A DNA stretch of 54,698 nucleotides. Origin: an uncultured delta proteobacterium. GTDB lineage: Bacteria; Desulfobacterota; Binatia; JACPRU01. Below the pieces are notes generated by a model, which did not search any database, was not told the origin of the DNA, and saw nothing but the letters and a program-made list of their open reading frames with translations. How positions within the stretch are numbered: position 1 is the first letter of the stretch; each line of letters opens with the position of its first letter. Of this stretch, positions 2,750 to 22,283 are shown piece after piece. The stretch lies in the NCBI GenBank assembly GCA_963708955.1, contig CAVPWJ010000058.1, forward strand, positions 1 to 54,698, read 5' to 3'. The position numbers and the translations under genes were made by a program.

Positions 2750-2796
2750 CTTCCCTCGCCACGAGCTTCGTGGTACGAGCCGCCGCGTCGCTGACG

Positions 2797-5700: not shown

Positions 5701-5940
5701 GAGGAAATCGACGGCAGCATCGTGGTGCCGCTGGCCGACACGCTCTCGGTCTTCTACCAGAGCAGCTACGATGCGCTGCAGAAGACCTTCCTCGCCAAGA
5801 TCGCCGGCCTGCGGCTGTCCTCCCAGTGCCAGTGCTGGGTCGCCGACGTCTTGATCGCCGACCGCGTCAACCCGAACGAGACCGAGGTGCGATTCCAGGT
5901 CACATTGATCGGCCTGGGATCGATCGGCCGCGCCCGCTGA
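2797..5940 (+). CDS. lptD: LPS-assembly outer-membrane protein LptD with long N-terminal extension
   Basis: Signal peptide at MMNARRALLW, OstA-like jellyroll (AQGHVTI..LTADEV), FTTC, WSI, VPVFYLP, RQSGLLSP, HTIEPEVDYLYVP and C-terminal QCW...VTLIGLG. It follows folC. The 1645 start given in the ORF track overlaps folC and is not credible. Confidence 0.9.
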   Translation: MMNARRALLWISFVALVAGSAAAQAPPPVGAPFGDLQVRSAPRVTEITLELPAAVNEEDRTKKRPGLSSAGVPTREAPPGAVAALPEGEATPRPEAEAKAAPAVTPSGGGEARTVSKRVSRPGALTVNEIHLFFPGSTIERPRLITVDDRIIQEARLFPDEGGVSMTVVVRRPVYYVVSRDASELHIRAEPGTLLLAESTGDLPRPSATRKAGGPRPRRSRSGQDVGGSQVQAEALVPKVTMPSMRKGEGLTIDAEHLSADQQTNEIVAQGHVTIARANSLLTADEVRIHRDSRQAQAHGNVQFTDPQGTVQADSFIGNIEDETGDLTNGSIYLSANHLSISGEKLQKSFGQTYHIENGEFTTCQCGAGPPSWSIAGDKIDITLNGYGLIDNAKLKVLEVPVFYLPKLAFPAKTTRQSGLLSPQFSYSKKRGFAYTQPFFLVLNKSADLTIAPDIETSARIGGIGEFRYALDEKSKGVLDVAFFDESLRNNAERDIVDTSIADPSIPKNRWSVTANVQQEMPFGVRAFADALAVSDDLYMREIRTFSFDPQYERTLTTSRFGSSSGGLYKSWEHATLVAQGVYYQDFIQEDDLTLQRLPQIQFFGADRFFDRHLKLGVNTEFVNFDRKQGFDGPRFDLAPTATVPFRWQEYFNGNFGLQFRETAYHLNNTDLLLPISQAGGVQTPTDTQALDKNPTREILQASAVIGTQISRVFDVGGEHVQKLKHTIEPEVDYLYVPDVNQDDLPIYDFVDRINRRNVFTYGFTTRLLAKLDKPPPIERRKKLSVGDMNPFTGEAASPFDDENTRGGLSSLGNPRLSGLEPSTDGLTAEETSRGALTPTEATAPESLTTEQRAEQRAERRQEEKSALSHVAEWARLQLFQSYDLRDSLQSNKDDHFSDFDAHLRVSPVDYFRLIYESTVNAKETSLTSASVGVQLRDPRARDVAGFLTATQRASAALSYRFISQSVLEEIDGSIVVPLADTLSVFYQSSYDALQKTFLAKIAGLRLSSQCQCWVADVLIADRVNPNETEVRFQVTLIGLGSIGRAR

Positions 5941-6668
5941 TGAAGGGGGTCGTTCTCGCCGGCGGACTAGGCACGCGCCTCGATCCGCTGACGCGGGTCA
6001 CCAACAAGCACCTGCTGCCGGTCTACGACCGGCCAATGATCTACTATCCGCTGTGGGCGTTGATCAACGCGGGGATCGAAGAGATCCTCATCGTCACCGG
6101 CGGGAACAACGCGGGGGACTTCTTGCGGCTGCTCGGCAACGGATCGGAGTTCGGGCTGAAGCACCTGAACTACACCTACCAGCAGGGCGAGGGGGGGATC
6201 GCCGCGGCGCTCTCGCTGGCCGAGCACTTCGCCGAGGGCGGCAAGATCTGCGTGGTGCTCGGCGACAACATCATCGAGCGGAACATCCAGCGCGCCGCCG
6301 CCGCCTTCCGCCGACAGCCCCGCGGCGCCAAGATCCTGCTCAAGCGGGTGTCCGATCCGCAGCGCTTCGGCGTTCCCGTGCTGCGCGGAAACCGCGTGGC
6401 GCGCATCGTCGAAAAGCCCCGGCGGCCGGCGAGCCCGTACGCGGTGACCGGCATCTACTTCTACGACTCCGCCGTCTTCGACTGCATCCGCGAGCTCAAG
6501 CCCTCGCGCCGCGGCGAACTGGAGATCACCGACGTCAACAACCACTACATCGCCGACGGGTCCATGACCTATGAGATCTTGCGGGGGTGGTGGACGGACG
6601 CCGGCACGTTCGAGTCACTGGCCAAAGCCAGTCGGCTGGTCGCCCGCGGCGGGGCAAACAAATTGTAG
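5940..6668 (+). CDS. rfbA: Glucose-1-phosphate thymidylyltransferase (short, SpsI-like form)
   Basis: MKGVVLAGGLGTRL.PLT..TNKHLLPVYDRPMIYYPL, VEKP, RGELEITDVN, WTDAGT; TGATG overlap with the lptD stop. Confidence 0.9.
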   Translation: MKGVVLAGGLGTRLDPLTRVTNKHLLPVYDRPMIYYPLWALINAGIEEILIVTGGNNAGDFLRLLGNGSEFGLKHLNYTYQQGEGGIAAALSLAEHFAEGGKICVVLGDNIIERNIQRAAAAFRRQPRGAKILLKRVSDPQRFGVPVLRGNRVARIVEKPRRPASPYAVTGIYFYDSAVFDCIRELKPSRRGELEITDVNNHYIADGSMTYEILRGWWTDAGTFESLAKASRLVARGGANKL

Positions 6669-6686
6669 GCTGGGGCTTCGCGTCGT

Positions 6687-6807
6687 GGGTTGGGACGCGG
6701 ATGCGGATGGAGCTGACGGCCCGACAGGCGGAGCGTCTCAATGCGAGTGTCCTGCGGGCCGCAGATCATCCGCTGTGTGCGGCGGCGGAGCTTGGTTGGG
6801 ACAGTCA
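6687..6807 (+). repeat. Dispersed structured intergenic element, copy 1 (candidate cis-RNA or attC-derived repeat)
   Basis: Shares TTGGG..GGATGCGGATGGAGCT..CGGC, CGGGCCGC.G.TCATCCGCTG, GCGGCGGCG.AG and GACAGTCA with 23113-23226(-). Forms a long hairpin from GCGGATG (6703) to CATCCGC (6773). Confidence 0.7.
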
Positions 6808-6885
6808 GAACCGTGCCGCGACCGATGGGCGCTCGGCGCTGGTGTAGAACCACCCCGGGATTTCTGACATCCTCTGGCCTCCGCG

Positions 6886-7341
6886 ATGATCCGCGACGTC
6901 CACGTCAAGAAGCTCGTCGTTCACAACGACGACCGCGGCACGTTGATGGAGGTGCTGCGCGCCGACGACCCGTTCTTCGCGGACATCGCCCAGACGACCT
7001 ACACGGTCGCCTATCCGGGCGTGATCAAGGCATTCCACTGGCACAAGCGGCAGAAGGACATCTGGTTCTTCGCGACCGGGATGGCGCAGGTGGTGCTCTT
7101 CGACATGCGCGACGATTCGCCGACTCACGGGCAAACGAACGTCCTCTACATGGGGGAGCGAAACCCGCTGGTGGTATCGATCCCGGAGTACGTGGCGCAC
7201 GGCTATCGCGTGCTCGGCAACGCCCCGGCCGGGCTTTTCTACCACACCACCTCGACCTACGATCCGCAGGATCCCGACGAGGAGCGCATCCCGTTCGATT
7301 CCCCGGCGATCGGCTTCGCTTGGGCGACCCGCTTCCGGTGA
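6886..7341 (+). CDS. rfbC: dTDP-4-dehydrorhamnose 3,5-epimerase family protein
   Basis: DDRG, PGVIKAFHWH, DMRDDSPTHG, IP..VAHGY motifs. Confidence 0.88.
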   Translation: MIRDVHVKKLVVHNDDRGTLMEVLRADDPFFADIAQTTYTVAYPGVIKAFHWHKRQKDIWFFATGMAQVVLFDMRDDSPTHGQTNVLYMGERNPLVVSIPEYVAHGYRVLGNAPAGLFYHTTSTYDPQDPDEERIPFDSPAIGFAWATRFR

Positions 7342-7348
7342 GCGCGGG

Positions 7349-8352
7349 ATGAGGCTGCTGGTCACCGGCGGGGCGGGGTTCATCGGCGCGAACTTCGTCC
7401 GCTACATGCTCGAGCGCGATCCGGACGTGCGGATCACCACGCTCGATTGCCTGACCTACGCCGGCAACCTCGCGAACCTCGAGGGGGTACGCGACGACCC
7501 GCGCCACCGCTTCGTGCGCGCCGACGTGACCGACGTCGGCGCCGTCGCCGCCGCGCTACAGGGCGGCAGCGATACGATCGTGCACTTCGCCGCCGAGAGC
7601 CACGTCGATCGCTCGATCGCCGACGCGGTGCCGTTTCTGCGCACCAACGTGCTCGGCACCGGCGTCCTGCTCGACGCCGCGCGCGCTGCCGGGGTGAAAC
7701 GTTTCCTCCACGTTTCCACCGACGAGGTGTACGGCAGCCTGGGGCCGACCGAGCGATCGACGGAGGAAGCGCCGCTGCGCCCGACCAGCCCCTACGCCGC
7801 GAGCAAGGCGGCCGCGGACCTGCTCGCGCTCTCCTATGCGCGCACCTACGGGCTCGACGTCGTGGTCTCACGCTGCACGAACAACTTCGGTCCTCTGCAA
7901 TTTCCCGAGAAGGTGATCCCGCTGTTCATCACCAACGCACTCTGCGATCAGCCGCTGCCGCTCTACGGCGCCGGCGCCAACGTGCGCGACTGGATCTTCG
8001 TCGACGACCATTGCGCGGCGCTCGCCTGCCTGCTGCGACAGGGACGGCCGGGCGAGGTCTACAACATCGGCGCGGACAACGAGTGGACGAACCGGGCGCT
8101 CACCGGCGAGATTTTGAAGCGGCTCGGCAAGCCCGAGAGCTTGATCCATCGGGTCACCGATCGTCCCGCCCACGATCGCCGCTACGCGCTCGATTCTTCG
8201 AAGCTGCGGCGCGATACCGGCTGGCGCCCCGCCTACACGTTCTCGGCGGCGATCGATCGCACGATCGAGTGGTACCGCACCAATGAGCCCTGGTGGCGGG
8301 CGGTCAAGACCGGCGAGTATCGAAGGTTCTATGATCTCTGGTATGGAGGGCG

Positions 8353-8359
<7 letters not shown>
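7349..8359 (+). CDS. rfbB: dTDP-glucose 4,6-dehydratase
   Basis: VTGGAGFIG, LTYAGN, HFAAESHVDRSI, HVSTDEVYG, SPYAASKA, QFPEK.IP, HDRRYALD. Confidence 0.96.
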
Positions 8360-9772
<1,413 letters not shown>

Positions 9773-9791
9773 GCCGGCCGGCCGCGCAGCG

Positions 9792-10772
9792 ATGAGGTTC
9801 TTCGTCACCGGCATCTCCGGCTTCGTCGGCACCCATTTGACCGCGGCTCTGCTCGAGCGCGGCGACACCGTTTTCGGGTTGGCGCGCGAAGCTGGATCGC
9901 TCGGCGCGCTGCACCGCCGTTTCGGGGATCGCTTCCCGGAGTCGGCGGTGGCGCTGTGCGACCTGCGCGACCGCGAGCGCCTGCGCGCGGAGCTCGTCCG
10001 CGCCTCGCCCGACGGCGTTTTCCACCTCGCCGGCGTCGCCTTCGTGCCGAAGAGCTTTGCCGCGCCCAACCTCGCCTACGAGGTGAACTTCCTCGGCACC
10101 ACCGAACTGCTCGGCGCGGTGCTCGCCGTCGCTCCAAGAGCGCGGGTCGTGCTGGTGACCTCCGGAGAGATCTACGGCTGGATCGATCCGGCGCGCGATC
10201 TACCGCTCGTCGAGAGCCAGCCGCTGCGGCCGCTCTCGCCCTACAGCGTCGCCAAGGCGGCGGCGGATCTGGCGGGATTCCAGTTCTTCCACGCGCACGG
10301 CCTCGATGTGGTGCGCGCGCGCCCGTTCAACCACACCGGCCCCGGCCAGTCGGCCGATTTCGTCTGCTCGGACTTCGCCCGTGCGCTGGCCGCCGCCGAG
10401 TGCGGCGCCGGCCCGGCGCGCCTCCGGGTCGGCAACCTCGATGTCGAACGGGACTTCAGCGACGTGCGCGACGTCGTGCGCGGTTATCTCGCCTTGTTCG
10501 AAAAAGGGACGGCGGGCGAGGCGTACAACTTGGGCTCCGGCGTGGCGACGCGCGTGGGGACGATCCTCGAGGAGCTACGCGGCTTCTGCCGCGTGACGGT
10601 AGACGTCGAGCCTGATGCGCGGAAGCTCCGCGCGGGGGAGCTGCCGCGCATCGTCGCTTCGATCGACAAGATCCGCGAGGCGACCGGCTGGCGGCCGGAG
10701 ATGCCGCTGCGCCGGACGCTCGCCGACCTGCTCGACGACTGGCGCGCGCGCCTGCGGGAGCCGGGTCGTTGA
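9792..10772 (+). CDS. rmd: GDP-4-keto-6-deoxy-D-mannose reductase-like extended SDR (GDP-D-rhamnose pathway)
   Basis: VTGISGFVG, YSVAK, RPFNHTGPGQ, VGNLDVERDFSDVRDVVRGY; directly after gmd. Confidence 0.75.
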   Translation: MRFFVTGISGFVGTHLTAALLERGDTVFGLAREAGSLGALHRRFGDRFPESAVALCDLRDRERLRAELVRASPDGVFHLAGVAFVPKSFAAPNLAYEVNFLGTTELLGAVLAVAPRARVVLVTSGEIYGWIDPARDLPLVESQPLRPLSPYSVAKAAADLAGFQFFHAHGLDVVRARPFNHTGPGQSADFVCSDFARALAAAECGAGPARLRVGNLDVERDFSDVRDVVRGYLALFEKGTAGEAYNLGSGVATRVGTILEELRGFCRVTVDVEPDARKLRAGELPRIVASIDKIREATGWRPEMPLRRTLADLLDDWRARLREPGR

Positions 10773-11473
10773 GCGCGAGCGGAAGGCGTCTCGGCTTGTC
10801 GGTGGTGATGCCGGCGTTCAACGAGGAGGGCAACGTCGCGGGAGCGATCCGCGCGGTGGCTACCGCCGTCGAGCCGCTGTTCGACGAGATCGAGATTCTC
10901 GTGGTCGACGACGGCAGCCGCGACGCCACCGCCGAGAAGGTACGCGAGGAGGCGCGCGCCGACCCGCGCGTGCGGCTTCTCCAGCACCCGCGGAACCGCG
11001 GCTACGGGGCGGCGGTCACCACCGGTCTCCGCGCGGCGCGCCTACCGCTCGTCTTCTACACCGACTCCGATCTGCAGTTCGATCCGCGCCAGATCCGCGA
11101 CCTGCTCGCCAAGATCGACGAGTTCCCGATCGTCGTCGGCTACCGGCGTAACCGCCAGGATCCCTGGATCCGCAAGCTGAACGCCTGGGCGTGGAACGCG
11201 CTCCAGCGAGTGCTGTTCGGCCTCGCCGTGCGGGACGTCGATTGCGCGTTCAAGCTGCTGCGGCGCGACGTGCTCGACGGCGTCCCGCTGCTGGCCGAGG
11301 GAGCGTTCTTCTCGACCGAGCTGCTGATCCGTCTGCAGGCCTCCGGCCACCGCATCACGGAGGTGGCGGTCGATCATTTCCCGCGCCGGACCGGCGCGCC
11401 GACCGGCGCTCGCATGCACGTCATCCTCAAGGCGTTTCGCGAGATGTGGCGCTTGCGATGGGAGCTGCGCTGA
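10769..11473 (+). CDS. GT2 glycosyltransferase (polyprenol-phosphate sugar synthase-like)
   Basis: LSVVMPAFNEE, VVDDGSRD, NRGYG, TDSDLQFDP, DVDCAFKL. Confidence 0.92.
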   Translation: MSASGRRLGLSVVMPAFNEEGNVAGAIRAVATAVEPLFDEIEILVVDDGSRDATAEKVREEARADPRVRLLQHPRNRGYGAAVTTGLRAARLPLVFYTDSDLQFDPRQIRDLLAKIDEFPIVVGYRRNRQDPWIRKLNAWAWNALQRVLFGLAVRDVDCAFKLLRRDVLDGVPLLAEGAFFSTELLIRLQASGHRITEVAVDHFPRRTGAPTGARMHVILKAFREMWRLRWELR

Positions 11474-11645
11474 TCGGCCAGGGCAGAATTTTGCAATTTC
11501 ATACGACGATATGAGATCCGAGGCCTCAGTAGGCGATGGCCGCTTGGTTGCGGCTGCGAGGCCGCGCTAGGCGATGGCTGCGCCCGGCGCAAGATGGGCA
11601 TCGCCGTCGAGCGGAGCCGCGCGGCCGCCGGTAGCCGCCTGGGCG

Positions 11646-12416
11646 ATGTTCGCCGACCTGCTGCAACACCGCTCGCTAGTGGTTGCGCTGCTCGCGCGAC
11701 AGTTGAAGATCCGCTACCGCGGCTCGATCCTCGGCTTCGTCTGGACGTTTCTCAATCCGCTCCTGCTGATGGCCGTCTACGCGCTGGTCTTCCGCTTCTA
11801 CATGCGGCTCGCGGTCCCGAACTATGCACTCTTCCTGCTCGCCGGCCTGCTGCCGTGGACGTGGTTTGCGTCGTCGCTCACCGAGGGCACCAACGCAATC
11901 GTCGGCGGCAGCTCGCTCGTCACCAAGTCGCTGTTTCCGAGCGAGATCCTGCCGACCGTGGTGGTGCTGGCGAACATGGTGAACTTTCTGCTCAGCATCC
12001 CGCTATTGGTGCTTGCCGGCTGGTTCTACGGGGTTGAGTTTCACCCGCTTGCCTGGCTCTGCCTCGTGCCGATCGTGGTCCTACAGTGCCTGTTCACGCT
12101 CGGCTTGGTGCTGGCGCTGGCTGCGCTCAACGTGCACTACCGCGACGTGCAGCACGTCGTCACGAACTTCCTGCTGCTGTGGTTCTTCCTCACGCCGATC
12201 GTCTATCCGGAGGCGCAGGTGCCGGCGGGATTGCGGGCGCTCTTGTGGGTGAATCCGGTGGCGCTGTTTACCGAGGTCTACCACGGCGTTTTCGTCGGCA
12301 CGTCCTGGCCGAGCCTCCAGACGGTGGGTATGCTCGGCCTGTACACGCTCGGCTCGCTGCTGGTCGGAGCGAAGATCTTCGATGGCTATCGCGACACGTT
12401 CCCCGAGCTCGTCTGA
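11646..12416 (+). CDS. wzm: ABC-2 polysaccharide export permease (Wzm/TagG/RfbD-ABC type)
   Basis: LKIRYRGSILGFVWTFLNPLL, LLPWTWF, YRDVQH, FFLTPIVYP, NPV; several TM segments. Confidence 0.9.
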   Translation: MFADLLQHRSLVVALLARQLKIRYRGSILGFVWTFLNPLLLMAVYALVFRFYMRLAVPNYALFLLAGLLPWTWFASSLTEGTNAIVGGSSLVTKSLFPSEILPTVVVLANMVNFLLSIPLLVLAGWFYGVEFHPLAWLCLVPIVVLQCLFTLGLVLALAALNVHYRDVQHVVTNFLLLWFFLTPIVYPEAQVPAGLRALLWVNPVALFTEVYHGVFVGTSWPSLQTVGMLGLYTLGSLLVGAKIFDGYRDTFPELV

Positions 12417-12424
12417 GCCGCTAG

Positions 12425-13480
12425 CAGCCTGTCGGACTTTCAGTAGGTCCGGGTAGCGAAAAAGGGGTATGGGACAGCATCACGAAGCGGTTCGAGTGGA
12501 TAGGGATGCGGAGGAGAGGATGAGCGGACGATTTGTGAGCGTGGACCGCGACACGGCGTATCTGATGCCGCCGTCGGTGCAGGAGTGGCTGCCCGAGAAT
12601 CATCTGGGGCGGTTTGTTGTCGAGATCGTGGAGCGGCTGGATCTGGGCGGCATGATCACAGCGTACCGGGGGCGAGGTTCGGACGCCTTTCATCCAGCGA
12701 TGATGGTTGCGCTGCTGTTCTACGGATACGCAACCGGGGTGTTTTCGAGCCGCAAGCTGGAGCGGGCGACGTACGACTCCGTGGCGTTTCGGTATCTGGC
12801 CGCGAACCAGCACCCCGACCACGACTCGATCGCTCACTTTCGCAAGCGATTTCTCAAGGAGTTGAGCGCCCTGTTCGTGCAGATTTTGCAAGTCGCGCAG
12901 GGGACGGGCGTGCTGAGGGTCGGCAAGGTGAGCCTGGACGGGACGAAGGTACACGCCAACGCCTCCAGGCACAGTGCGCTCAGCTGGGAGCATGCTTGCA
13001 AGATCGAAGCGCAGCTGCGGGCCGAGGTGGAGGAGTTGATGCGGTTGGCGGAAGAAGCCGACCGAAGCGATCTTCCCGACGGGATGAGCGTGCCGGAAGA
13101 ATTGGAGCGGCGCGAAGCACGCCTGGCGGCGATTGCACGGGCGAAGGTGGAGATCGAGGCGCGCGCGGCCGAGCGCCATGCGCGGGAGAAGGCTGCCTAC
13201 GAACAGAAGATGGCGGAGCGAGCTGCTCCGGGGTCTGAAGTCCGTGCAGCATGAGTGGACCCTGGTCTGCATCGGGTGGAACATGAAACGGCTCCACCGA
13301 CTGCAAATGGCGGCTTGAACAAGGCATCGCCGCGCCCATGCAGCCACGCCTCGCAACCGCGCCACGGCGCTCCAAGCCCCGGCCTTCAGGACTTGTGCTG
13401 GACTTCATCGCTCTCGGATTCTTCGGTCGCATCGCAGCGAAATAAAAGCGAATGTCGCTCACTTCAAGCCCGACAGGCTG
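12425..13480 (+). mobile_element. IS1182-family element, internally deleted (1056 bp), flanked by CTAG direct repeats
   Basis: IRL CAGCCTGTCGGACTT (12425-12439) vs IRR AAGCCCGACAGGCTG (13466-13480), 14/15 match; CTAG at 12421-12424 and 13481-13484. Confidence 0.9.
12520..13318 (+). pseudogene. IS1182 transposase with central deletion and frameshift
   Basis: N-terminal part (PPSVQEWLPENHL, YGYATGVFSSRKLE, PDHD, LDGTKVHANAS) is joined near 13223 to the C-terminal motif LRGLKSVQHEWTLVCIGWNMKRL in another frame. Confidence 0.88.
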
Positions 13481-13552
13481 CTAGCGACGATTGGTCCTTC
13501 ACAAAATACCCGGTGATCTGGTTGCCGGGCAGCCGCGAGTCGGGGCATGCGA

Positions 13553-14344
13553 CTAGCGGCCCTTCCACACCGGCTTGCGCTTCTCGGCGAATGCCCGCGG
13601 CCCCTCCTGCGCGTCCTCGCTCGCATAGGCCTCGCGATAGATGTTGTGCGCCAGTGCAATGCCTGCCTCGCAGCCGGCGCTCATCGCGGTCAGGATCGAC
13701 TCCTTGCCCGCCATCACCGACAGCGGCGCGTTGTCGCGGATGCGCTCCGCCAGGCGGTTGGCCCGATCTCGCACCGCATCCGGCGTGTCTTCGAGGTAGT
13801 TGATAAAGCCGAGTTGATGGAACTTGGCGATCGGCTGCAACTCGCCGGTCAATACCAGCTCCATCAAGAGCGGCTGCGGCAGCATCCACAGCAGCGGGAT
13901 CGCCCACGGGCTGCCGCGCCCGGCAATGCGCGTTTCCGTGATGCCAACCTGGGTGCCCTTGAGTCCCACGCGCAGGTCGGTGTTCAGGCTCAGCATCATG
14001 CCGCCGGCGATCAGGTGGCCGGTCATGGCCGCGATGATGGGCTTACTGACCTTGCGCATGCGGCTGTGGAACGGATCTTTCATCAGCGTCAGGATGTCCA
14101 CGCCTTGTTCCTGCTTGACGCGGGAGGCCTCGCGCAGGTCGAGCCCGGCGCAGAAGGTGCCGCAGTCAGCCGAGGTCAGGATCGCCACGCGAACGCCACG
14201 GTCGGCGTCGACCTGCTCCCAGAGCTCATACAAGCGGTTGGTCGCCGCCACCGACAGCGCGTTGCGCTGCTCGGGGCGGTTGATCTTCACGGTGGCAATG
14301 CCGTCATTGACCTCGTAGAGCACTACGTTGCTGGTATCACTCAT
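13553..14344 (-). CDS. Enoyl-CoA hydratase/isomerase (crotonase family)
   Basis: INRPEQRNAL, FCAGLDL, KPIIAA..G..IAGG, EDAQEGPRAFAEKRKPVWKGR. Confidence 0.93.
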   Translation of the reverse strand: MSDTSNVVLYEVNDGIATVKINRPEQRNALSVAATNRLYELWEQVDADRGVRVAILTSADCGTFCAGLDLREASRVKQEQGVDILTLMKDPFHSRMRKVSKPIIAAMTGHLIAGGMMLSLNTDLRVGLKGTQVGITETRIAGRGSPWAIPLLWMLPQPLLMELVLTGELQPIAKFHQLGFINYLEDTPDAVRDRANRLAERIRDNAPLSVMAGKESILTAMSAGCEAGIALAHNIYREAYASEDAQEGPRAFAEKRKPVWKGR

Positions 14345-14380
14345 CTCTGATCTCCTGGTAGGAACAGTCTCGCCGCAACC

Positions 14381-16384
14381 TCATTCGGCCGCGCCTTCGG
14401 ATTCGACCACCGCCACGACCAGGCCGCGCTCGACCATCTGCCCGGGCCGTACCGACAGCGAACGCACCACACCGTCGTGCTCGGCGCAGATACGCATCTC
14501 CATCTTCATCGACTCCATCGTCGCCACCACGTCCCCGGCGCGCACTCGCTCGCCGACGGCAACGTGCGTCTTGAGGATCATCCCCATCATCGGCGTGCGC
14601 AACTGGCCGCTGGCCTGCCGGGCCGTGGCGGCATGGCTCAGATACGAGGTCACGCCGATCTCGTGCGCGGCGCCGCTGCCCTGCAGGAACAGGGTGTCAC
14701 CGCGCCGCACGATCGTGACCACGTCCTGTCGATCGCCGACCCGCAGCCGCCAGTCCCCCTGCGCAGCGGCAGTCAGCGACAGCCGAACCCGCTCGGCGCC
14801 GACCTGCACCGTGACTTCGGACTCGGGCGACATGGCCCCGAACCGAACCTCGTGCGCGCTGCCTCCCGAGTGCAGCAGCAACGCCGGAATCGAGGTCAGC
14901 GGGTCGTCGCCCGCATCCATCTGCCAGCCCGTCATGTCGAGGGCAGACCACGCCCCGAAGCGGGCGCCCGTGCGCCGCGCATCGAGCAACCACCAGGCGG
15001 CCGCGGCGGCGAGTCGCTCCAGCGGCGCGCCAGGCGCACCGAGGGCCCGCTCGGCCAGCATCTGGTCGATCAGCCGGGTGTGGAACGTGGCGTTGCGCGT
15101 GTCGGGCAGCTCGATCAGACGCCGCAGAAAGGCGCAGTTGGTCTCGACGCCGAGCACCTGGGTTTCGCCCAGTGCCAGGCTCAGACGGTCCAGCGCCGCA
15201 TCGCGCGTGGGAGCGTGAACGATCAGCTTGGCCAGCATCGAGTCGTAGTACGGCGTAACCACCATGCCCGCGCGCACGCCCGATTCGACCCGCACGCCGG
15301 AGGCCGGGAAACGCACCTCGACGAGCTCGCCGGTGGACGGCAGAAAATTGTGCGCTGCATCCTCGGCACACACCCGCGCCTCGACCGCGTGGCCGCGCAC
15401 GCGCACATCGCCCTGGCGCAAGGGCAGCCCCTCGCCGGCGGCGATGCGCAACATGATCTCGACCACGTCGAGCCCGGTCACCTCCTCGGTCACCGGATGC
15501 TCGACTTGCAGCCGAGGGTTGACTTCGAGAAAGTGATGGCGATCCCCCCGCACGATGAACTCCACCGTGCCGACGCCGCGATACCGCAGCCGCTGCCCCA
15601 GGCGCACCGCATCATCCAGCATCGCCTGGCGCAGCGCGGCGGCCAAGTTGGCCGCCGGCGCCTCTTCGATCACTTTCTGATGGCGCCGTTGCAGCGTACA
15701 TTCGCGCTCGAACAGGTGAACCAGCTCCCCGCGCCCGTCGCCGGCGATTTGCACCTCGATGTGACGCCCACGATCGACGAACGGTTCGACGATCAGCGCG
15801 GAGTCGCCGAAGGCACTCTTGGCTTCGCGCATCGCCGACTCGATCTCGTCACTCAGTCCGTCGAGCTGGCGCACCACCCGCATGCCCTTGCCGCCGCCGC
15901 CGACGGCCGCCTTCAGCACCACGGGCAGCGGCAGGCCGTGCACGATGGCCGCTACTTCGGCCGCATCGCGGCTCGGGACGTCGCTGCCACCCAGCACGGC
16001 CACGCCAGCGGCGCGCGCCTCGCGCTTGGCCGCCGCCTTGTCGCCCAGGCGTTCGATGACTTCGGGCGTCGGACCGATGAAGACCAGCCCGGCCGCCTCG
16101 ACCGCGCGCGCGAACGCGGCGTTCTCGGCCAGGAAGCCGAAGCCGGGATGGATGGCCTGCGCCCCGGTGCGCCGTGCCGCGTCGATCACCGCGTCGATGC
16201 GCAGGTAGCTTTCGGCCGCCGATGCCCCGCCGATCTCGATCGACTCGCCGATCAGCTCGACATGCAGCGCATCGCGATCGGCACTCGAGTGCACGCCGGC
16301 CGCCGCGACGCCGAGACGGCGGCAGGTGCGCGCGATACGGCAAGCGATTTCGCCACGGTTGGCGATCAGGATCTTCTTGAACAT
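14381..16384 (-). CDS. Acyl-CoA carboxylase alpha subunit (biotin carboxylase plus biotin carrier; MCC/geranyl-CoA carboxylase type)
   Basis: KILIANRGEIA, IHPGFGFLAEN, GGGGKGMR, ERECTLQRRHQK, LEVNPRLQVEHPVTE, ESMKME biotinylation motif. Confidence 0.95.
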   Translation of the reverse strand: MFKKILIANRGEIACRIARTCRRLGVAAAGVHSSADRDALHVELIGESIEIGGASAAESYLRIDAVIDAARRTGAQAIHPGFGFLAENAAFARAVEAAGLVFIGPTPEVIERLGDKAAAKREARAAGVAVLGGSDVPSRDAAEVAAIVHGLPLPVVLKAAVGGGGKGMRVVRQLDGLSDEIESAMREAKSAFGDSALIVEPFVDRGRHIEVQIAGDGRGELVHLFERECTLQRRHQKVIEEAPAANLAAALRQAMLDDAVRLGQRLRYRGVGTVEFIVRGDRHHFLEVNPRLQVEHPVTEEVTGLDVVEIMLRIAAGEGLPLRQGDVRVRGHAVEARVCAEDAAHNFLPSTGELVEVRFPASGVRVESGVRAGMVVTPYYDSMLAKLIVHAPTRDAALDRLSLALGETQVLGVETNCAFLRRLIELPDTRNATFHTRLIDQMLAERALGAPGAPLERLAAAAAWWLLDARRTGARFGAWSALDMTGWQMDAGDDPLTSIPALLLHSGGSAHEVRFGAMSPESEVTVQVGAERVRLSLTAAAQGDWRLRVGDRQDVVTIVRRGDTLFLQGSGAAHEIGVTSYLSHAATARQASGQLRTPMMGMILKTHVAVGERVRAGDVVATMESMKMEMRICAEHDGVVRSLSVRPGQMVERGLVVAVVESEGAAE

Positions 16385-16391
16385 GCCGGCC

Positions 16392-17999
16392 TCACATGCG
16401 GAACACGCCGAAGCGCGTGTCGCGCTGTGGCTGCCGACCGGCCAGCTCCAGCAGCAGGGCCATGGTGTCGCGCGTTTCGACGGGGTCGATCACCATGTCG
16501 CACCACAGGTTCGAGGCATAGTTGTAGGGGCTCGCAAAACGCTCGAACTGCTCGCGGATCGGCTGCTTGAAACGCTCCTTCTCCTCCTCGGTCCAGGTCG
16601 TGCCTTCGCGCCGGTGGATCTTCTCGCGCACCATGCCCAGCGTGGTGGCCGCCTGCTCCGGGCCCATCAGCGCGGCGCGGCCGGTGGGCCACATCATCAT
16701 CACGTTCGGCTTGAACGGCCGTCCGCACATGGCCATGTAACCCGCCGCATAGGAGCCGCCGGTGATCAGCGTGTAGCGCGGCACATTGGCCGAGGCCATG
16801 GCCGTCATGAACTTCGCGCCGTGCTTGGCGATGCCCTGCTGCTCGACCGCCTGGCCGACCATGAAGCCCGACACATCGACGATGAACCACAGTGGAATGT
16901 CGCGCTGGCAGCACAGCTCGATGAAGTGCGCGCCCTTGAGCGCACTCTCGGAGAAGATCACGCCATTGTTGGCCAGGATGCCGATCTGGAAGCCCTTGAT
17001 GCGCGCAAAGCCGCAGATCATCGTGTCGCCGTACAGCGGCTTGAACTCCCGCAGGTCGCTGTCGTCGATCAGCCGAAGCAGCACCTCGCGGTTGTCGGTC
17101 GGGTGGCGGTTGTCGGCGCTGACGATGCCGTAGATCTCGCGCGGGTCATGGCGCGGCGGCATCGGGGCCGCCGTGTCCCAGCGCTGCTTCGGCGCGGTGC
17201 CGAGATGGGCCACGATGCCGCGCACGATGGCGATCGCGTGGCCGTCGTTCTCGGCCAACTGGTCGGTGACGCCGCTGATGCGGCTGTGCATCTCGCCGCC
17301 GCCCAGCGTCTCGATGTCGACCTCCTCCTTGGTGGCGGCATACACCAGCTCGGGCCCAGCGAGGAACATCGCGCCCTGGTTGCGCACGATCACCGCCTCG
17401 TCGCACAGCGCCGGCAGGTAGGCGCCGCCGGCGGTCGAAGGCCCATGCACGGTCGCGATCTGGGTGATGCCCTCGGCCGACATGCGGATCTGGTTGTAGA
17501 AGATGGAGCCGAACTGGCCGTCGTCGGGAAAGATATGCGCCTGTTCCGGCAGGTTGGCGCCGCCCGACTGGACCATGGTGATGCACGGCAGCCGGTGCTG
17601 CCAGGCGAACATCTGGGCGCGCACGTGTTTTTTCGCGGTGATGCCGTAGTAGCTGCCGCCCTTCACGGTGGCATCGTGGATCATCAGCATGCACGGCGGG
17701 CCCGCCACCAGACCGACGCCGGTGATGATGCTGCCGCCCGGGGGCACGCCCCTGTAGAGGCCGTCGCCGGCGAGTTGCCCGAACTCGAGGAACGGCGAGC
17801 CGATGTCGAGTACGGCGGCCAGGCGCTCGCGCGGCAGCAGTTGCTTGCGCTGCTGGTGCAGCAAGCGCGCCTTCTCGGGGCCGCCGACCAGCGCGCGCGC
17901 TCGGCGTTCATGCAGTTCGCGAATGCGCGCCTCATAGGCTTCGCGGTTGCGGCGGAACTCCTGCGAGTCCAGCGACACGGTAGACGGCATCACGCTCAT
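16392..17999 (-). CDS. Acyl-CoA carboxylase beta (carboxyltransferase) subunit
   Basis: DATVKGG, SGGANLP, STAGGAY.PA, LANNG, GIAKHGAK, RFGVFRM C-terminus; start MSVMPSTV in an ATGA overlap. Confidence 0.93.
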   Translation of the reverse strand: MSVMPSTVSLDSQEFRRNREAYEARIRELHERRARALVGGPEKARLLHQQRKQLLPRERLAAVLDIGSPFLEFGQLAGDGLYRGVPPGGSIITGVGLVAGPPCMLMIHDATVKGGSYYGITAKKHVRAQMFAWQHRLPCITMVQSGGANLPEQAHIFPDDGQFGSIFYNQIRMSAEGITQIATVHGPSTAGGAYLPALCDEAVIVRNQGAMFLAGPELVYAATKEEVDIETLGGGEMHSRISGVTDQLAENDGHAIAIVRGIVAHLGTAPKQRWDTAAPMPPRHDPREIYGIVSADNRHPTDNREVLLRLIDDSDLREFKPLYGDTMICGFARIKGFQIGILANNGVIFSESALKGAHFIELCCQRDIPLWFIVDVSGFMVGQAVEQQGIAKHGAKFMTAMASANVPRYTLITGGSYAAGYMAMCGRPFKPNVMMMWPTGRAALMGPEQAATTLGMVREKIHRREGTTWTEEEKERFKQPIREQFERFASPYNYASNLWCDMVIDPVETRDTMALLLELAGRQPQRDTRFGVFRM

Positions 18000-18064
18000 C
18001 GACGCGGCTCGCCACGCTGCCGAACCGCCCACACGGCTCGTTCGGCGGGTTCTCGCGCGCTCAT
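17996..18064 (-). pseudogene. 22-codon mini-ORF coupled at both ends; probable fused ends of a deleted gene
   Basis: MSAREPAERAVWAVRQRGEPRR*; ATGA overlaps with the upstream stop (18061-18064) and the downstream start (17996-17999). Confidence 0.5.
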
Positions 18065-18395
18065 GCCGCCGCACGCAGCGCCGCGCAGCGCCGCGGGTGA
18101 TGGTCGGAGCTGCCGAACAGGTGGCACAACAGGGTGAGCCGGCGGAAGTAGTGGCCGATGTCCAGTTCCTCGGTCATGCCCACGCCGCCGTGCAACCGCA
18201 CCGCCTGCTGCGCCGGGCTGCCGGCGCGCCACGGCCTGCGCGCCGAGCACGGCGCTGGCGAGATAGGGCTCGACCATCAGCGCGGCACCCATCGACTCGG
18301 CGACCTGGATCGTCTCCACCATGCCGCCACCGAAGCCGCCATGCGCCTCGGGAAGCGCAGCGCCGAGCCAGCCGAACTCGCCGAAACGCTGGAGG
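18061..18395 (-). pseudogene. Acyl-CoA dehydrogenase remnant (5'-truncated, central deletion, frameshift)
   Basis: N-terminal fragment FGEFGWLGAALPEAHGGFGGG...EPYLAS is joined near 18215 to the C-terminal fragment AQQAVRLHGGVGMTEELDIGHYFRRL in another frame. Confidence 0.85.
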
Positions 18396-18420
18396 ATAGT
18401 CACGATAGAGGATAGTCACG
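18392..18420 (+). repeat. 13-bp direct repeat at the truncation point
   Basis: GAGGATAGTCACG at 18392-18404 and 18408-18420. Confidence 0.85.
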
Positions 18421-18638
18421 GGCGGCCGAGTTGCCCGAAAGCCCCGATCTCCGATCTCCGACGTTGCGGACCCCCTACCCTCCTCCTTCGAGACTCCCGT
18501 TTTTATGGCGCACATAAGGCACCCGTCAAGTTGCTTTTGCCGGCGGGACAGCGGGTTCATCGGGCTGGCGCTAGCCCTTCAGCACGTGACACTTTCATTC
18601 ACTACCCCTCGTCGGTTTGACCGGCGCACGGAGAAACC

Positions 18639-20183
18639 ATGACCCCAGACATCGGACTCGGAAACTGGCTGTATCAACGCGCGCAGCGCACCCCACACCG
18701 AAAGGCGCTCACGTTCGAGGGCGCAACCTGGACCTACGCCGAGATTCAGCAGCGCATCGACCGCCTGGCCGGCGCGCTGCGCACGAACGGCGTCTGTCAC
18801 GGCGATCGAGTCGGCTTTCTCGGCTTGAACCAGCCCGCTTTCTTCGAGACCCTGTTTGCCGCCGCTCGGCTGGGCGCCGTGTTCGTGCCGTTGAACTTCC
18901 GGCTCAGCGGGCCGGAGCTCAGCTACATCATCAACGACGCCGGCGTGCACACGCTGGTGGTCGACGAGCCGCACCGGCCGGTAGTCGACGGCATTCGGGC
19001 GGAGCTTCCGTGCCGCCGGTTCTGGTCGGCCGACCAGTCGGTCGAGGGATGGCCGGCGCTCTCCAGCCTGCTCGCCGCGCACGAGCCGCTCGCGGCGGGA
19101 GAGGCGGTCGCTGAGGACGAGGTCGCCGTCATCATGTACACCAGCGGGACGACCGGGGTTCCCAAGGGGGCGATGCTCACCCACGGCAACCTGTGGTGGA
19201 ACAATACCAACGCGATGCTGACACTCGACATCCTCGAGAGCGACATCTCGCTGGTCGTCGCGCCGCTCTTTCACATCGGTGGGCTCAACATCACCACGCT
19301 CGTGACTTGGCAGAAGGGCGGGCACCTCGTCCTCCACCGGACCTTCGACCCGCGGCGGTTCCTGGAGGACGTAGCGACGTACCGCGTCAGCAGCACGTTC
19401 GCCGTGCCGGCGATGCTGCTGTTCGTCAGCCAGCAGCCAAACTTCGCCTCAGCCGACCTCTCGAGCCTGCGCTTGATCGTGTGCGGCGGAGCCCCGGTAC
19501 CGGAGCCGCTCATGCGCCTCTATGCCGAGCGCGGCACCCCGATCAATCAAGGCTACGGGCTGACGGAGACCGCGCCGTTGTTGACCTTCCTCACGTCGGA
19601 GTGGGCGATCGCCAAGATCGGCTCGGCGGGCCTCACGTCGATTTTCACCGAGGTTCGGATCGTCGACGCCAACGGGCTCAGGGTCACGAAGCCGAGGGAA
19701 AATGGTGAAGTCATCGCCCGGGGGCCGAACGTCATGAAGGGCTACTGGAACAAACCCGAGGCAACAGCCGCCGCAATCGACGCGCGAGGATGGTTTCATA
19801 CCGGTGACGTCGGCTACTTCGACGAGGACGGCTTTCTCTTCATCACCGACCGTCTGAAGGACATGGTGATTTCGGGTGGCGAGAACGTCTATCCCGCCGA
19901 GGTCGAGAGCGTGCTCTACGAACATCCGGCGATCGCCGAAGTCGCGGTGATCGGCCTGCCGGACGGAAAGTGGGGCGAAATGGTGATCGCGGTGGTGGCG
20001 CTCAAACCCGACGCCAAGCTCGATCTCGAGCAGCTGAGGGCCTTCGCGACCGACAGGCTGGCGCGCTACAAGCTGCCGCGCCGCCTGGAGATCGTCACCG
20101 CCCTGCCGCGCAACCCGGCGGGAAAGGTTCTCAAGTTCGAGCTGCGCAGCCGATTCGGCGCGGCAGACCGCCCGATCGGCTGA
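18639..20183 (+). CDS. AMP-dependent acyl-CoA synthetase (FadD13/MenE-like)
   Basis: IMYTSGTTGVPKG, GYGLTET, GWFHTGD, DRLKDMVISGGENVYPAEVE, LPRNPAGKVLK; GGAG SD. Confidence 0.94.
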   Translation: MTPDIGLGNWLYQRAQRTPHRKALTFEGATWTYAEIQQRIDRLAGALRTNGVCHGDRVGFLGLNQPAFFETLFAAARLGAVFVPLNFRLSGPELSYIINDAGVHTLVVDEPHRPVVDGIRAELPCRRFWSADQSVEGWPALSSLLAAHEPLAAGEAVAEDEVAVIMYTSGTTGVPKGAMLTHGNLWWNNTNAMLTLDILESDISLVVAPLFHIGGLNITTLVTWQKGGHLVLHRTFDPRRFLEDVATYRVSSTFAVPAMLLFVSQQPNFASADLSSLRLIVCGGAPVPEPLMRLYAERGTPINQGYGLTETAPLLTFLTSEWAIAKIGSAGLTSIFTEVRIVDANGLRVTKPRENGEVIARGPNVMKGYWNKPEATAAAIDARGWFHTGDVGYFDEDGFLFITDRLKDMVISGGENVYPAEVESVLYEHPAIAEVAVIGLPDGKWGEMVIAVVALKPDAKLDLEQLRAFATDRLARYKLPRRLEIVTALPRNPAGKVLKFELRSRFGAADRPIG

Positions 20184-20255
20184 TCGAGACCGTGAGCGCC
20201 GCCGTCTTCGTTCGAGAGTAGCCGCCCACGATCTCGTCACCTCGACACCGTCGCG

Positions 20256-20415
20256 TTACGGAACCATGAAGGTGTCTTCGATGAGGGTCTGGTTAGCGCG
20301 GGCCTCGATGGCCAGCACCTCGTACGGCTGCACCCCTGAGGCCAGGGACGCGACGAACTCTGGCGGGACCGTGACGCTCGTAGTCGTGGCGGGAACGGTC
20401 ACCTGGAACAAACCG
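20256..20415 (-). pseudogene. C-terminal fragment of an uncharacterised beta-rich (FN3-like) protein
   Basis: LFQVTVPATTTSVTVPPEF...YEVLAIEARANQTLIEDTF reads like a real protein C-terminus; the upstream frame looks non-coding. Confidence 0.45.
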
Positions 20416-20497
20416 ATTCGGTGGTCACGATCCCGTGCCTCGTCCTTCCGCCGCCGATCAACCTGACGCCCCTGGAACGAATCCTCTCGGGCGCGGC

Positions 20498-20530
20498 CTT
20501 GGTGCATCTTGGTGCGAAGTGCTGTATCGT
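20498..20530 (+). promoter_or_regulatory. Candidate RHH operator and leaderless promoter
   Basis: CTTGGTGC direct repeat at 20498 and 20508 (period 10); TATCGT at 20525-20530, 6 nt before the ATG; no SD. Confidence 0.45.
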
Positions 20531-20536
20531 GAAGCC

Positions 20537-20794
20537 ATGTCGAGCCTCGCAAAACCCATCCGTCAGAGCGTCAGCATCCCGCCACGCATCGCCCGCGAAG
20601 TGCAGGCCTTGGCGAAGCGGAAAAAGGCCAGCACCAACCGTGTGATCGTGGATTTGATCGAGTGCGGTCTCGAAGCCCAGGACCAGGAGAAGAGGCGCTT
20701 CTTCGAGCTGGCCGATCGGCTGGCGAGCTCGTCCGACGCCGCCGAGCAGAAACGCCTCAAGGAAGAGTTGGCCCGCATGACCTTCGGTGATTGA
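20537..20794 (+). CDS. Ribbon-helix-helix DNA-binding protein, putative antitoxin (85 aa)
   Basis: RQSVSIP strand followed by two helices (RIAREVQALAK, STNRVIVDLIECGL) and a charged helical tail. Confidence 0.75.
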   Translation: MSSLAKPIRQSVSIPPRIAREVQALAKRKKASTNRVIVDLIECGLEAQDQEKRRFFELADRLASSSDAAEQKRLKEELARMTFGD

Positions 20795-21036
20795 TGCCGA
20801 AGATCCAGTGGGCCCATCTGCCGCCCGCGCTGCGCGATCACCTGTTCGACCGAGTGCGAGAGCGGAAGATCACCGCGGAAGACATCTATCAACTGAAACT
20901 TTGGAGAGAGTCCGAACCGGAAGCGCCAGACGGGCTCTGGTACAAGAACTTCGGGTCCTTCAAGGTCTGTGGCGAGGGGAGGTATCCGAAGACCTTCCTG
21001 CTGCGTGGTCAAGCGGCCAAGGGCCAGAAGCTCTGA
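20794..21036 (+). CDS. Small basic hypothetical protein, putative toxin (80 aa)
   Basis: TGATG coupling to the RHH gene; protein-like composition; HLFDRVRERKITAEDI segment. Confidence 0.7.
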   Translation: MPKIQWAHLPPALRDHLFDRVRERKITAEDIYQLKLWRESEPEAPDGLWYKNFGSFKVCGEGRYPKTFLLRGQAAKGQKL

Positions 21037-21351
21037 GTCTTGTTCTTGTGTTCGGCCGAGCCCGGCCCCTCGCAACGGCAGGCATCGCTCAAAGTAGTAT
21101 TGCCGGTCACGAGAGTTTTCCCGACCCTCCGGGATGGGACCGTGTCTTCGCGTAAACCCGAATTCACAGGCTCTGAGCGACCGGAGAACCGAGCAGGGGC
21201 CGAGGATGGCCTCGACTCTCTGCGGCACGCGGATAGCCCGGATAAACGGGGGCCATGGCGAATCTACTCGGGCGGCGTCATCGTCAGGTCGTCAATTTTG
21301 ATACCGCCTTGGCCGTCGTCTTCGACCGAGATCACCGGCGCCTGGAAAGCC

Positions 21352-21381
21352 GAGGGCCTCCTCCGTCAGGAGGAAGCCCTC
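21352..21381 (-). terminator. Hairpin downstream of tRNA (probable terminator)
   Basis: On the minus strand GAGGGCTTCCTCC-TGAC-GGAGGAGGCCCTC; the U-tract is weak. Confidence 0.55.
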
Positions 21382-21405
21382 AAAAATTCCGGCCTAGTTT
21401 ATTTA

Positions 21406-22283
<878 letters not shown>

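Follow-up and report, generated by a model that had tools for sequence, protein, structure and literature searches.

Ribbon–helix–helix (RHH) repressors such as CopG, Arc, MetJ, and omega of pSM19035 read tandem or inverted short repeats. In RelE/ParE toxin–antitoxin (TA) modules, represented by archaeal RelBE (3bpq/1wmi), M. tuberculosis ParDE2 (8c26), and SO_1444–SO_1445 (7etr), the gene for an RHH antitoxin comes first, the C-terminal tail of the antitoxin wraps the toxin, and repeats in the promoter serve autoregulation. Here we describe a pair of small genes that is alike in gene order and in the modeled antitoxin tail, and for which autoregulation by the first gene product is predicted. 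The pair lies on a contig of an uncultured delta proteobacterium (CAVPWJ010000058.1), the whole 54,698 nucleotides of which were analyzed and are referred to as the window; its two genes, hereafter gene 1 and gene 2, occupy positions 20537 to 21036 of the forward strand.

The toxins of such modules belong to a fold, BECR, whose branches differ in the placement of the catalytic residues. A common BECR active site, found in colicin D and in the PBECR domains of phages, is described as pairing an N-terminal-helix His with a strand-4 Ser/Thr (Iyer 2017, PMC5512222). A preprint that reports five new BECR families and 31 subfamilies assigns DUF4258/Ntox49 to the colicin-like branch, whose active site lies on the pre-helix and last strand. 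RelE-like proteins are characterized there by a short N-terminal strand and a pre-helix, with the active site on strands 2–3 and a C-terminal extension carrying a conserved Tyr/Arg (bioRxiv 10.64898/2026.08.28.747851). DUF4258 is itself listed as a TA toxin family with antitoxin–toxin gene order, its target and activity being given as unknown in the entry concerned (Gerdes 2025, PMC11980606), and the signature assigned to Ntox49 is 'H, [KR]' (Zhang 2012, PMC3482391).

Based on the analyses described below, we read the locus as a chromosomal type II TA cassette of ~680 bp that encodes an autorepressing RHH antitoxin and a BECR-fold toxin, the latter predicted to be an endoribonuclease, and put the probability of this reading at roughly 55%. 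In the proposed scheme, RHH dimers of the gene 1 product would occupy three TGGTGCA-like half-sites at −37, −27, and −17 from the start codon, each one helical turn from the next. Since these half-sites span the region from −35 to a TG-extended −10 box, synthesis of the pair's own leaderless mRNA would be switched off on binding. Residues 52–85 of gene 1, its helical C-terminal tail, are modeled to clamp the two-helix hairpin of the gene 2 product, which would neutralize it. The gene 2 product, in turn, would be a minimal, 80-residue BECR-fold toxin that acts as a metal-independent endoribonuclease on RNA (tRNA or mRNA). Translation of the toxin is expected to be coupled to that of the antitoxin through a TGATG overlap, and the cassette is taken to move horizontally between soil and groundwater bacteria. 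The features on which this scheme is built are as follows.

20413–21094, plus strand: near-identical cassette extent, with promoter, both genes, and a 58-nt tail, from public-run contigs (not reads) aligned to 20300–21200
20500–20506, plus strand: predicted operator half-site 1, TGGTGCA (exact), at −37 from the ATG and inside the first CTTGGTGC
20510–20516, plus strand: predicted operator half-site 2, TGGTGCG (1 mismatch), at −27
20520–20526, plus strand: predicted operator half-site 3, TGCTGTA (2 mismatches, degenerate here), at −17, overlapping the −10 box
20525–20530, plus strand: −10-like hexamer TATCGT, 6 nt before the ATG of gene 1
20537–20794, plus strand: gene 1 (antitoxin), ATG at 20537 to TGA at 20792–20794, 85 residues, by direct reading and translation
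Within gene 1: residues ~8–47, predicted strand–helix–helix DNA-binding part; residues 52–85, modeled helical toxin-binding tail
20794–21036, plus strand: gene 2 (toxin), ATG at 20794 to TGA at 21034–21036, 80 residues, by direct reading and translation
Within gene 2: helix 1 with His16, Arg20, and Arg24; strands 1–2 with Lys51 and the FGSFK motif; last core strand with Thr67

Gene Pair and Predicted Operator

The two small, TGATG-coupled genes named in the original prediction, which had been made from the letters of this stretch alone, are read directly from the sequence with their coordinates; the junction is TGATG, and one base is common to both genes. Related loci were taken as the best 80 of 98 stretches that encode a gene 2 relative in species-representative genomes. 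A gene 1 homolog lies directly upstream of the gene 2 homolog in 80/80 of these loci, one of which is cut by a contig end and one of which has a frameshifted toxin. The antitoxin stop shares 1 nt with the toxin start in 53 loci and directly adjoins it in 21, for a spacing of 0 nt or less in 74/80. The 153 flanks of the loci fall into 118 unrelated groups, 95 of them singletons. Conservation of the gene neighborhood is thus seen for the pair itself, which stays adjacent while its flanks vary.

Upstream of gene 1, a direct repeat of CTTGGTGC had been proposed. Both copies are present, at 20498–20505 and 20508–20515, and their 10-bp period is confirmed, but the layout comprises three sites rather than two, the third being degenerate and overlapping the −10 box. 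The 18-nt pattern CTTGGTGCNNCTTGGTGC has a single occurrence in the 54.7-kb window with up to two mismatches allowed, compared to 0.02 expected by chance, and 2/100 shuffled sequences gave a match.

For a survey of operators, 77 upstream regions (76 loci plus the window, after 4 loci with less than 300 nt of upstream sequence had been dropped) were aligned on the start codon, and a site was defined as a TGGTGCA-like heptamer with at most one mismatch. A half-site occurs at −37 in 45/77 regions (in 54/77 at −38 to −36), at −27 in 44/77 (in 52/77 at −28 to −26), and at −17 in 55/77. At least two such sites lie within −60 to −7 in 65/77 regions, whereas a control stretch 200 nt further upstream contains none in 70/77. 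The arrangement is mostly one of three direct repeats, except in 11 regions, the more distant Bryobacterales-type subgroup, where the half-site at −27 is inverted. The suggestion that the short repeats form an autoregulatory operator fits this three-site layout, which is conserved across relatives, with DNA binding by gene 1 predicted.

The third half-site reads TGGTGTA in relatives and is followed by TAAT-like letters, which identifies it as part of a candidate TG-extended −10 box. The best −10 hexamer agrees with TATAAT at 4/6 or more positions in 71/77 regions and stops exactly 6 nt short of the start codon in 58/77; the window has TATCGT at 20525–20530, at the distance from the first ATG that had been noted originally. 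A Shine–Dalgarno core within −16 to −4 was found in 1/77 regions and is absent at gene 1 of the window. Because the −10 box ends 6 nt before the start and a Shine–Dalgarno core is missing, a leaderless or near-leaderless mRNA is predicted, and the gene 1–gene 2 transcript is probably of this type. A generic two-hexamer promoter scan found no promoter at the operator region of the pair.

The conserved half-site would be read by the RHH ribbon, which fits the invariant Arg9 and Ser11 in the antitoxin strand. The family is like CopG, Arc, MetJ, and omega in its strand–helix–helix fold and in half-sites placed one helical turn apart. It differs in that the TGGTGCA half-site and the fixed −37/−27/−17 register ending in a leaderless start are, as far as examined, specific to the family, and in that the gene 1 protein of the window reaches no RHH Pfam model. 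With three half-sites, a fixed register, a leaderless start, and the same half-site inverted in one subgroup, the operator is unusually legible and would therefore make a convenient system for studies of RHH–operator recognition.

Predicted Antitoxin and Its Modeled Complex with the Toxin

The assignment of gene 1 as RHH-like rests on both profile and model comparisons, and the RHH pattern and charged helical tail ascribed to it at the outset are each recovered. A profile built from 30 antitoxin sequences, in which the N-terminal strand residues Arg9 and Ser11 are invariant, matches the CopG-family antitoxin SO_1444 of the Protein Data Bank (PDB) at its DNA-binding domain, over residues 11–52 (6iya, expectation [E] value 0.0043; 7etr_A, E 0.012). 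The AlphaFold2 (AF2) model of gene 1, with a predicted local distance difference test (pLDDT) score of 91.7, shows an extended N-terminus followed by helices 16–28, 33–64, and 68–83. RHH proteins make up most of its Foldseek list (CdbA, Arc, CopA_SO, AmrZ, CopG, ParG, PutA-RHH, MazE6, and TacA); the model superposes on RHH domains with root-mean-square deviations of 1.3–1.9 Å over 41–45 residues and with probabilities of 0.9–0.99, those for CopA_SO, CopG, ParG, PutA-RHH, and CdbA being 0.92–0.99, yet all E values exceed 0.3. The tail, residues 45–85, is of mixed charge, with 8 K+R and 10 D+E.

For gene 1, curated models give nothing above threshold; among the Pfam families, no RHH model matches, the only match being YlcI/YnfO at E 0.037; other library matches are sub-threshold RHH-type ones and a single unnamed PHROG family, phrog_8682 (E 1.9e-5). 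Across 30 gene 1 relatives, RHH_1 matches 9 (best E 0.0065), RHH_5 matches 5, and DUF6364 matches 11, with all of the RHH matches below the cut-off. There are 961 gene 1 relatives, and several sources label them CopG/Arc/MetJ regulators or predicted DNA-binding proteins.

A complex of antitoxin tail residues 44–85 with the toxin was modeled, each partner with its own alignment, alongside three controls. The interface score (ipSAE) was 0.83 (0.83, 0.85, and 0.83 in the individual runs), compared to 0.01 for the best of the three controls. The model thereby passes a score mark that is reached by 116/157 solved complexes and by 2/215 mismatched pairs. Contacts are shared between runs at a level of at least 97%, partner pLDDT is 91, and the interface joins antitoxin residues 52–85 with toxin residues 6–38, which form the helical hairpin. 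This result fits the proposed pairing, with the qualification that part of the pass may be likeness, because RelBE- and ParDE-like complexes have already been solved.

Predicted Toxin: Fold and Candidate Active Site

By count, gene 2 encodes 15 K+R and 10 D+E, in line with its earlier description as basic, and at 80 residues its product would be one of the smallest BECR-fold toxins. Its AF2 model, calculated from a 41-sequence alignment, has a pLDDT of 95.3 and a predicted template modeling score (pTM) of 0.82. The topology consists of a short strand (residue 3), helices 11–23 and 28–39, strands 48–52, 56–61, and 64–70, and a last short strand at 78–79. The expected order, a helix and then short β-strands ending in PKTFL, corresponds in the model to two helices followed by three strands, with PKTFL in the last.

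No family matched gene 2 in Pfam (E ≤10), NCBIfam, or PADLOC, and PHROGs gave only a match at E 0.2. In these libraries, the pair accordingly corresponds to no named TA family, in keeping with the original prediction, in which it was not recognized as one; gene 1 has only its sub-threshold RHH-type matches and phrog_8682. As judged by sequence against the models of these four libraries, gene 2 represents a new family among BECR-fold toxins and is ordinary as a kind; of the claim to a new type II TA system, the type II anatomy stands, and the novelty is better described as that of a new sequence family within the known BECR/RelE–ParE kind. Lacking any such model, the family is labeled 'hypothetical', or wrongly transposase or ParB, by annotation pipelines in thousands of soil and groundwater genomes. 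Acetyl-CoA synthetase, the sole sequence-profile match in the PDB, was rejected as a relative of gene 2, its E value of 1.7 being at chance level.

Foldseek searches of the gene 2 model returned nothing at E ≤0.001 from the PDB, where weak rows were HigB2, PfiT, and ParE, or from BFVD, where weak rows included a RegB-type endonuclease, a phage DUF4258 protein, and 'colicin D'. In an exhaustive VIA structure search, toxin chains of TA entries filled 19/20 top rows; the best matches were RelE/ParE toxins, and colicin E5, colicin D, and RegB appeared further down. The BECR-type fold proposed for gene 2 therefore agrees with its top structural matches, although the Foldseek comparison with the PDB on its own gave none that was significant.

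Conservation within the family follows a colicin-like His + Thr pattern. Arg20 and Arg24 are invariant among the 41 sequences, and His16, Asp30, Trp37, Trp49, Lys51, Phe53, Gly54, Phe56, Gly60, Gly62, Thr67, Phe68, and Leu69 are at least 90% conserved, Thr67 lying within strand 64–70 of the model. The PBECR domains of polyvalent proteins are alike in that their N-terminal helix has a His and strand 4 a Thr/Ser (Iyer 2017, PMC5512222); gene 2 differs from them in being matched by no Pfam model at E ≤10 and in standing alone with an antitoxin.

In an alignment of 23 DUF4258/Ntox49 genes found with PF14076 in 61 genomes, the first-helix His and the last-strand Thr are the only invariant or near-invariant columns. 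Profile–profile alignment (hhalign) of the toxin family with DUF4258 gave a weak match, with a probability of 20–21% and P 0.0011–0.0012 over 36–42 columns (helices only), and placed His16, Ile26, and Asp30 in register; the H-x3-R-x3-R-x-I-x3-D helix, likened to DUF4258 in the original prediction, is aligned with it to this extent. A forced global alignment did not align the sheets, a profile search found no solved DUF4258 structure, and PF14076 did not match gene 2 at E ≤10, while matching 3/41 family members with a best E of 0.098. In the ESM-Atlas, where 30/30 of the nearest clusters are unnamed, the closest one with a name is likewise DUF4258, scoring a weak 0.83. The two families are alike in small size and antitoxin-then-toxin order (Gerdes 2025, PMC11980606), and in the N-terminal helix motif and conserved last-strand Thr. 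They differ in their sheet motifs, FGSFK-x-CGEG and PKTFLL in the gene 2 family as opposed to RP-x-HVV and ITVY in DUF4258, and the gene 2 family is ~20 residues shorter.

The likeness of the scaffold to RelE raises the alternative that the toxin of the same TA pair is a RelE-type ribosome-dependent mRNA interferase, which would cleave in the A site through the sheet residues Lys51, Lys57, and Lys66 and would use no His/Thr dyad. The short N-terminal strand and pre-helix of the model match the RelE-like topology (bioRxiv 10.64898/2026.08.28.747851), and the basic charge of gene 2, the antitoxin-first order, and the RHH antitoxin are as expected for a relBE-like module. We nevertheless consider this activity unlikely. 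The RelE-type C-terminal extension with its Tyr/Arg is absent, gene 2 ending 10 residues past the last core strand with no conserved aromatic among them, and conservation peaks instead in the first helix (His16, Arg20, and Arg24), at the colicin-like site. In addition, gene 2 shows no sequence or profile similarity to PF05016 (ParE_toxin, the family that holds E. coli RelE), as hhalign of the toxin family with 25 ParE_toxin sequences gave a probability of 0.3% and P 0.23. With 80 residues, the toxin is also shorter than the matched RelE/ParE-superfamily chains (84–121 residues).

The same alignment bears on a toxin that would act as a ParE-like, non-nucleolytic DNA gyrase poison, which we regard as improbable. 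RelE and ParE toxins head the structural matches together, but PF05016 matches 5 other genes of the genome and not gene 2. Moreover, a near-invariant His, two invariant Arg residues, and a conserved Thr at BECR catalytic positions are unexpected in a gyrase poison, and the homologous domain of a phage protein, described below, sits beside RNA-end-processing and protein-modifying domains. We conclude that the scaffold of gene 2 is most like RelE/ParE, that its conserved residues are of the colicin-D/DUF4258 type, and that it belongs to neither Pfam family; the toxin is most likely an RNase. The apparent combination of a RelE-like scaffold with a colicin-type catalytic pattern bears on how the BECR RNase lineages relate to one another.

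Several points weigh against the reading of the locus as a TA cassette with a toxin of this kind. The best structural neighbors are RelE/ParE rather than colicin-like proteins, and the active-site assignment could therefore be wrong; the spatial closeness of His16, Arg20, Arg24, and Thr67 is assumed from the topology. The DUF4258 link is weak, with a probability of 20% over 36–42 helix columns and a shallow toxin alignment (effective number of sequences 2.3), and a genome search with PF14076 matches a gene on another contig and not gene 2. In the complex model, His16 and Arg20 lie outside the confident contacts, and the route from binding to a catalytic block is not evident. Finally, 80/80 related loci come from metagenome bins, and mis-binning inflates the apparent spread across phyla.

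As a separate observation, five or more matches to ParE_toxin (PF05016) and a single true DUF4258 (PF14076) gene lie in the source genome (G000), on contigs C3, C79, C104, and C224, so that several other BECR-fold TA modules are present there.

Distribution, Phage Homologs, and Surroundings

The family is large and widespread, relatives of gene 2 forming 2,390 clusters at 90% identity. Among the 120 matches listed for gene 2, identity ranges from 79% to 100%, a precomputed Pfam domain is recorded for none, and those that carry a name are almost all called 'hypothetical protein'. An exhaustive HMMER scan of 1.84 billion representatives returned 919 at E ≤0.001, many of which are fragments or read-throughs. 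By record title, the 80 related loci divide into 53 Acidobacteriota-type, 11 Nitrospirota, 5 Rokubacteria, 5 Planctomycetota, 5 Pseudomonadota, and 1 Verrucomicrobiia. The pair is single-copy in the source genome and was found in 0/40 of its relatives (1 congener, 6 genomes sharing its family, and 33 sharing its class, with 33 at least 90% complete).

In a tree of 77 concatenated pairs, from which L029, L058, L073, and L080 were left out as incomplete, the phylum label changes 10 times; the minimum is 5, and shuffled labels average 23.9. Two loci, one from a Bryobacterales bin (L075) and one from a Nitrospiraceae bin (L076), have identical pair proteins and an identical 90-nt upstream sequence, which reflects either a very recent transfer or a mis-binned contig. 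Taken together, the label changes and the identical pair in two phyla point to partial lineage clustering plus some transfer or mis-binning.

The extent of the mobile unit is indicated by public-run contigs. A 696-nt contig from run X2 matches 20413–21094, from which it differs at 6 letters and by one 6-nt gap. Ahead of 20413 it departs from the window, and a contig from a different study (run X10) has the same 20 non-window letters there. A second X2 contig is unlike the window for 255 letters after 21094. We read this as a cassette of ~680 bp that is present in at least two genomic contexts. No terminal inverted repeats were found at the cassette ends, and a tblastn search of PLSDB gave no plasmid match.

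Fused or longer forms of gene 2 account for 38 matches. Of 16 sequences examined, most are antitoxin–toxin read-throughs, frameshifts, or chimeras, and none is a polymorphic-toxin fusion of the gene 2 domain. Several independent clusters, P0393, P0394, P0244, and P0395 (164 residues), carry the toxin with an extra C-terminal part of ~80 residues that has no Pfam match and is either a real fusion or a read-through into a recurrent downstream gene. In P0414 and P0417, the toxin is truncated after approximately residue 47 and continues into an AbrB/SpoVT-type (PF04014) antitoxin-like protein, an arrangement suggestive of disruption of the cassette by another TA module or recombination with it.

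A different kind of explanation would be that the pair is not a TA system and that gene 2 encodes a harmless partner of the RHH regulator, a co-repressor or RNA-binding factor kept for regulation only. Gene 2 is unusually conserved for a toxin, with a median identity of 80% across phyla compared to 59.5% for gene 1, and it is the more conserved of the two in 80/80 loci; BECR domains that are inactive and only bind RNA are also on record, such as MuF-C of Mu (Iyer 2017, PMC5512222). However, the catalytic-type residues are conserved rather than degraded, and as the two-gene cassette moves among unrelated contexts, no conserved third gene that it could regulate travels with it. The gene overlap, self-operator, and partner-clamping tail are the standard type II layout, and there is a disrupted copy whose truncated toxin continues into a protein of AbrB type. 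We therefore judge a purely regulatory role to be improbable as well, and retain the TA cassette as the preferred reading.

Homologs also occur in phages. A tblastn search of 50,697 phage records gave one match, gp321 of Tunturiibacter phage Tunturi_5, a 308.7-kb jumbo phage of an Acidobacterium (record PP885688.1; gp321 at L143:302-4390). Residues 10–93 of this protein align with gene 2 at 38% identity (E 2e-6 in the database search and 1e-12 in pairwise BLASTP), and they keep His16, Arg20, Arg24, Trp37, Trp49, Lys51, and the FGSFK motif, with Thr67 replaced by Ser. gp321 has 1,362 residues and is encoded between head–tail connector and minor tail genes. Besides the N-terminal toxin homolog, it has SprT-like and GNAT domains and a 2H/2'-5' RNA-ligase-like domain, the last with a weak Acb1-like match, and ART-PolyVal matches up to three stretches at E 6e-48. 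By this domain set and its location among virion genes, gp321 is a polyvalent protein as Iyer 2017 (PMC5512222) uses the term. Its annotation as 'MutT/NUDIX hydrolase' has no counterpart in a NUDIX match at E ≤0.01. In the IMG/VR viral contigs, three loci have the toxin, and one of these also has the antitoxin. On the contig with both genes, the pair adjoins a large open reading frame (ORF), taken by eye as a portal protein.

The gp321 homolog provides a testable link between TA toxins and injected phage effectors. A more specific extension of the model, which we regard as speculative and doubtful, is that the family is the free-living TA form of an RNase domain that Acidobacteria jumbo phages inject in polyvalent virion proteins, that the cassette takes part in this conflict and is more than an addiction module, and that the toxin combines the RelE-like scaffold and the colicin-D-like His/Thr site with an RNA target of its own. 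If this were true, the host toxin would abort infection once the labile antitoxin runs out. Alternatively, the host antitoxin would also neutralize the incoming phage homolog and thus serve as an immunity protein toward an effector that is injected. Under this extension, the toxin would be a structural intermediate, with a RelE-like scaffold and a colicin-D-like active site.

Within the window, the neighbors of the pair are genes for an AMP-binding acyl-CoA synthetase, carboxyltransferase and biotin carboxylase subunits, an enoyl-CoA hydratase, an RluB-like pseudouridine synthase, ScpB, and ScpA. Because these are housekeeping or metabolic genes, the location in an accessory island that had been suggested is not supported; the pair is instead a small insert of lower G+C content (0.60–0.62, and 0.59–0.625 over about 20400–21500, compared to 0.68 for the whole window). 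One further feature lies nearby.

21406–21479, minus strand: tRNA-Met gene, its 3' end 370 bp from the pair

No att-like repeat of the tRNA-Met end was found in window positions 1–21520, and a tRNA lies within the locus in 6/80 related loci, about the chance level. Collinearity of the window with a genome of the same genus (G001) starts exactly at 21405, the 3' end of the tRNA-Met gene, and runs to 37892 at 82–87% identity, and three genomes of the same family also match from about 21405 onward. Positions 1500–21400 have only paralogue-level matches (66–71%) in G001; since this genome is just 74% complete, the comparison is uninformative to the left of 21405. A generic terminator scan gave one terminator-like hairpin, at 21020–21034, which is not above the level of shuffled sequence.

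Two ORFs near the pair match no Pfam family and may be non-coding: one of 98 residues opposite the promoter region (20256–20552, minus strand) and one of 125 residues in the 370 bp that separate gene 2 from the tRNA gene (21037–21405). Further upstream, in a lower-G+C gap just ahead of the acyl-CoA synthetase gene, a tandem 16-nt repeat at 18386–18417 (two adjoining copies, 88% alike) may serve as a regulator binding site.

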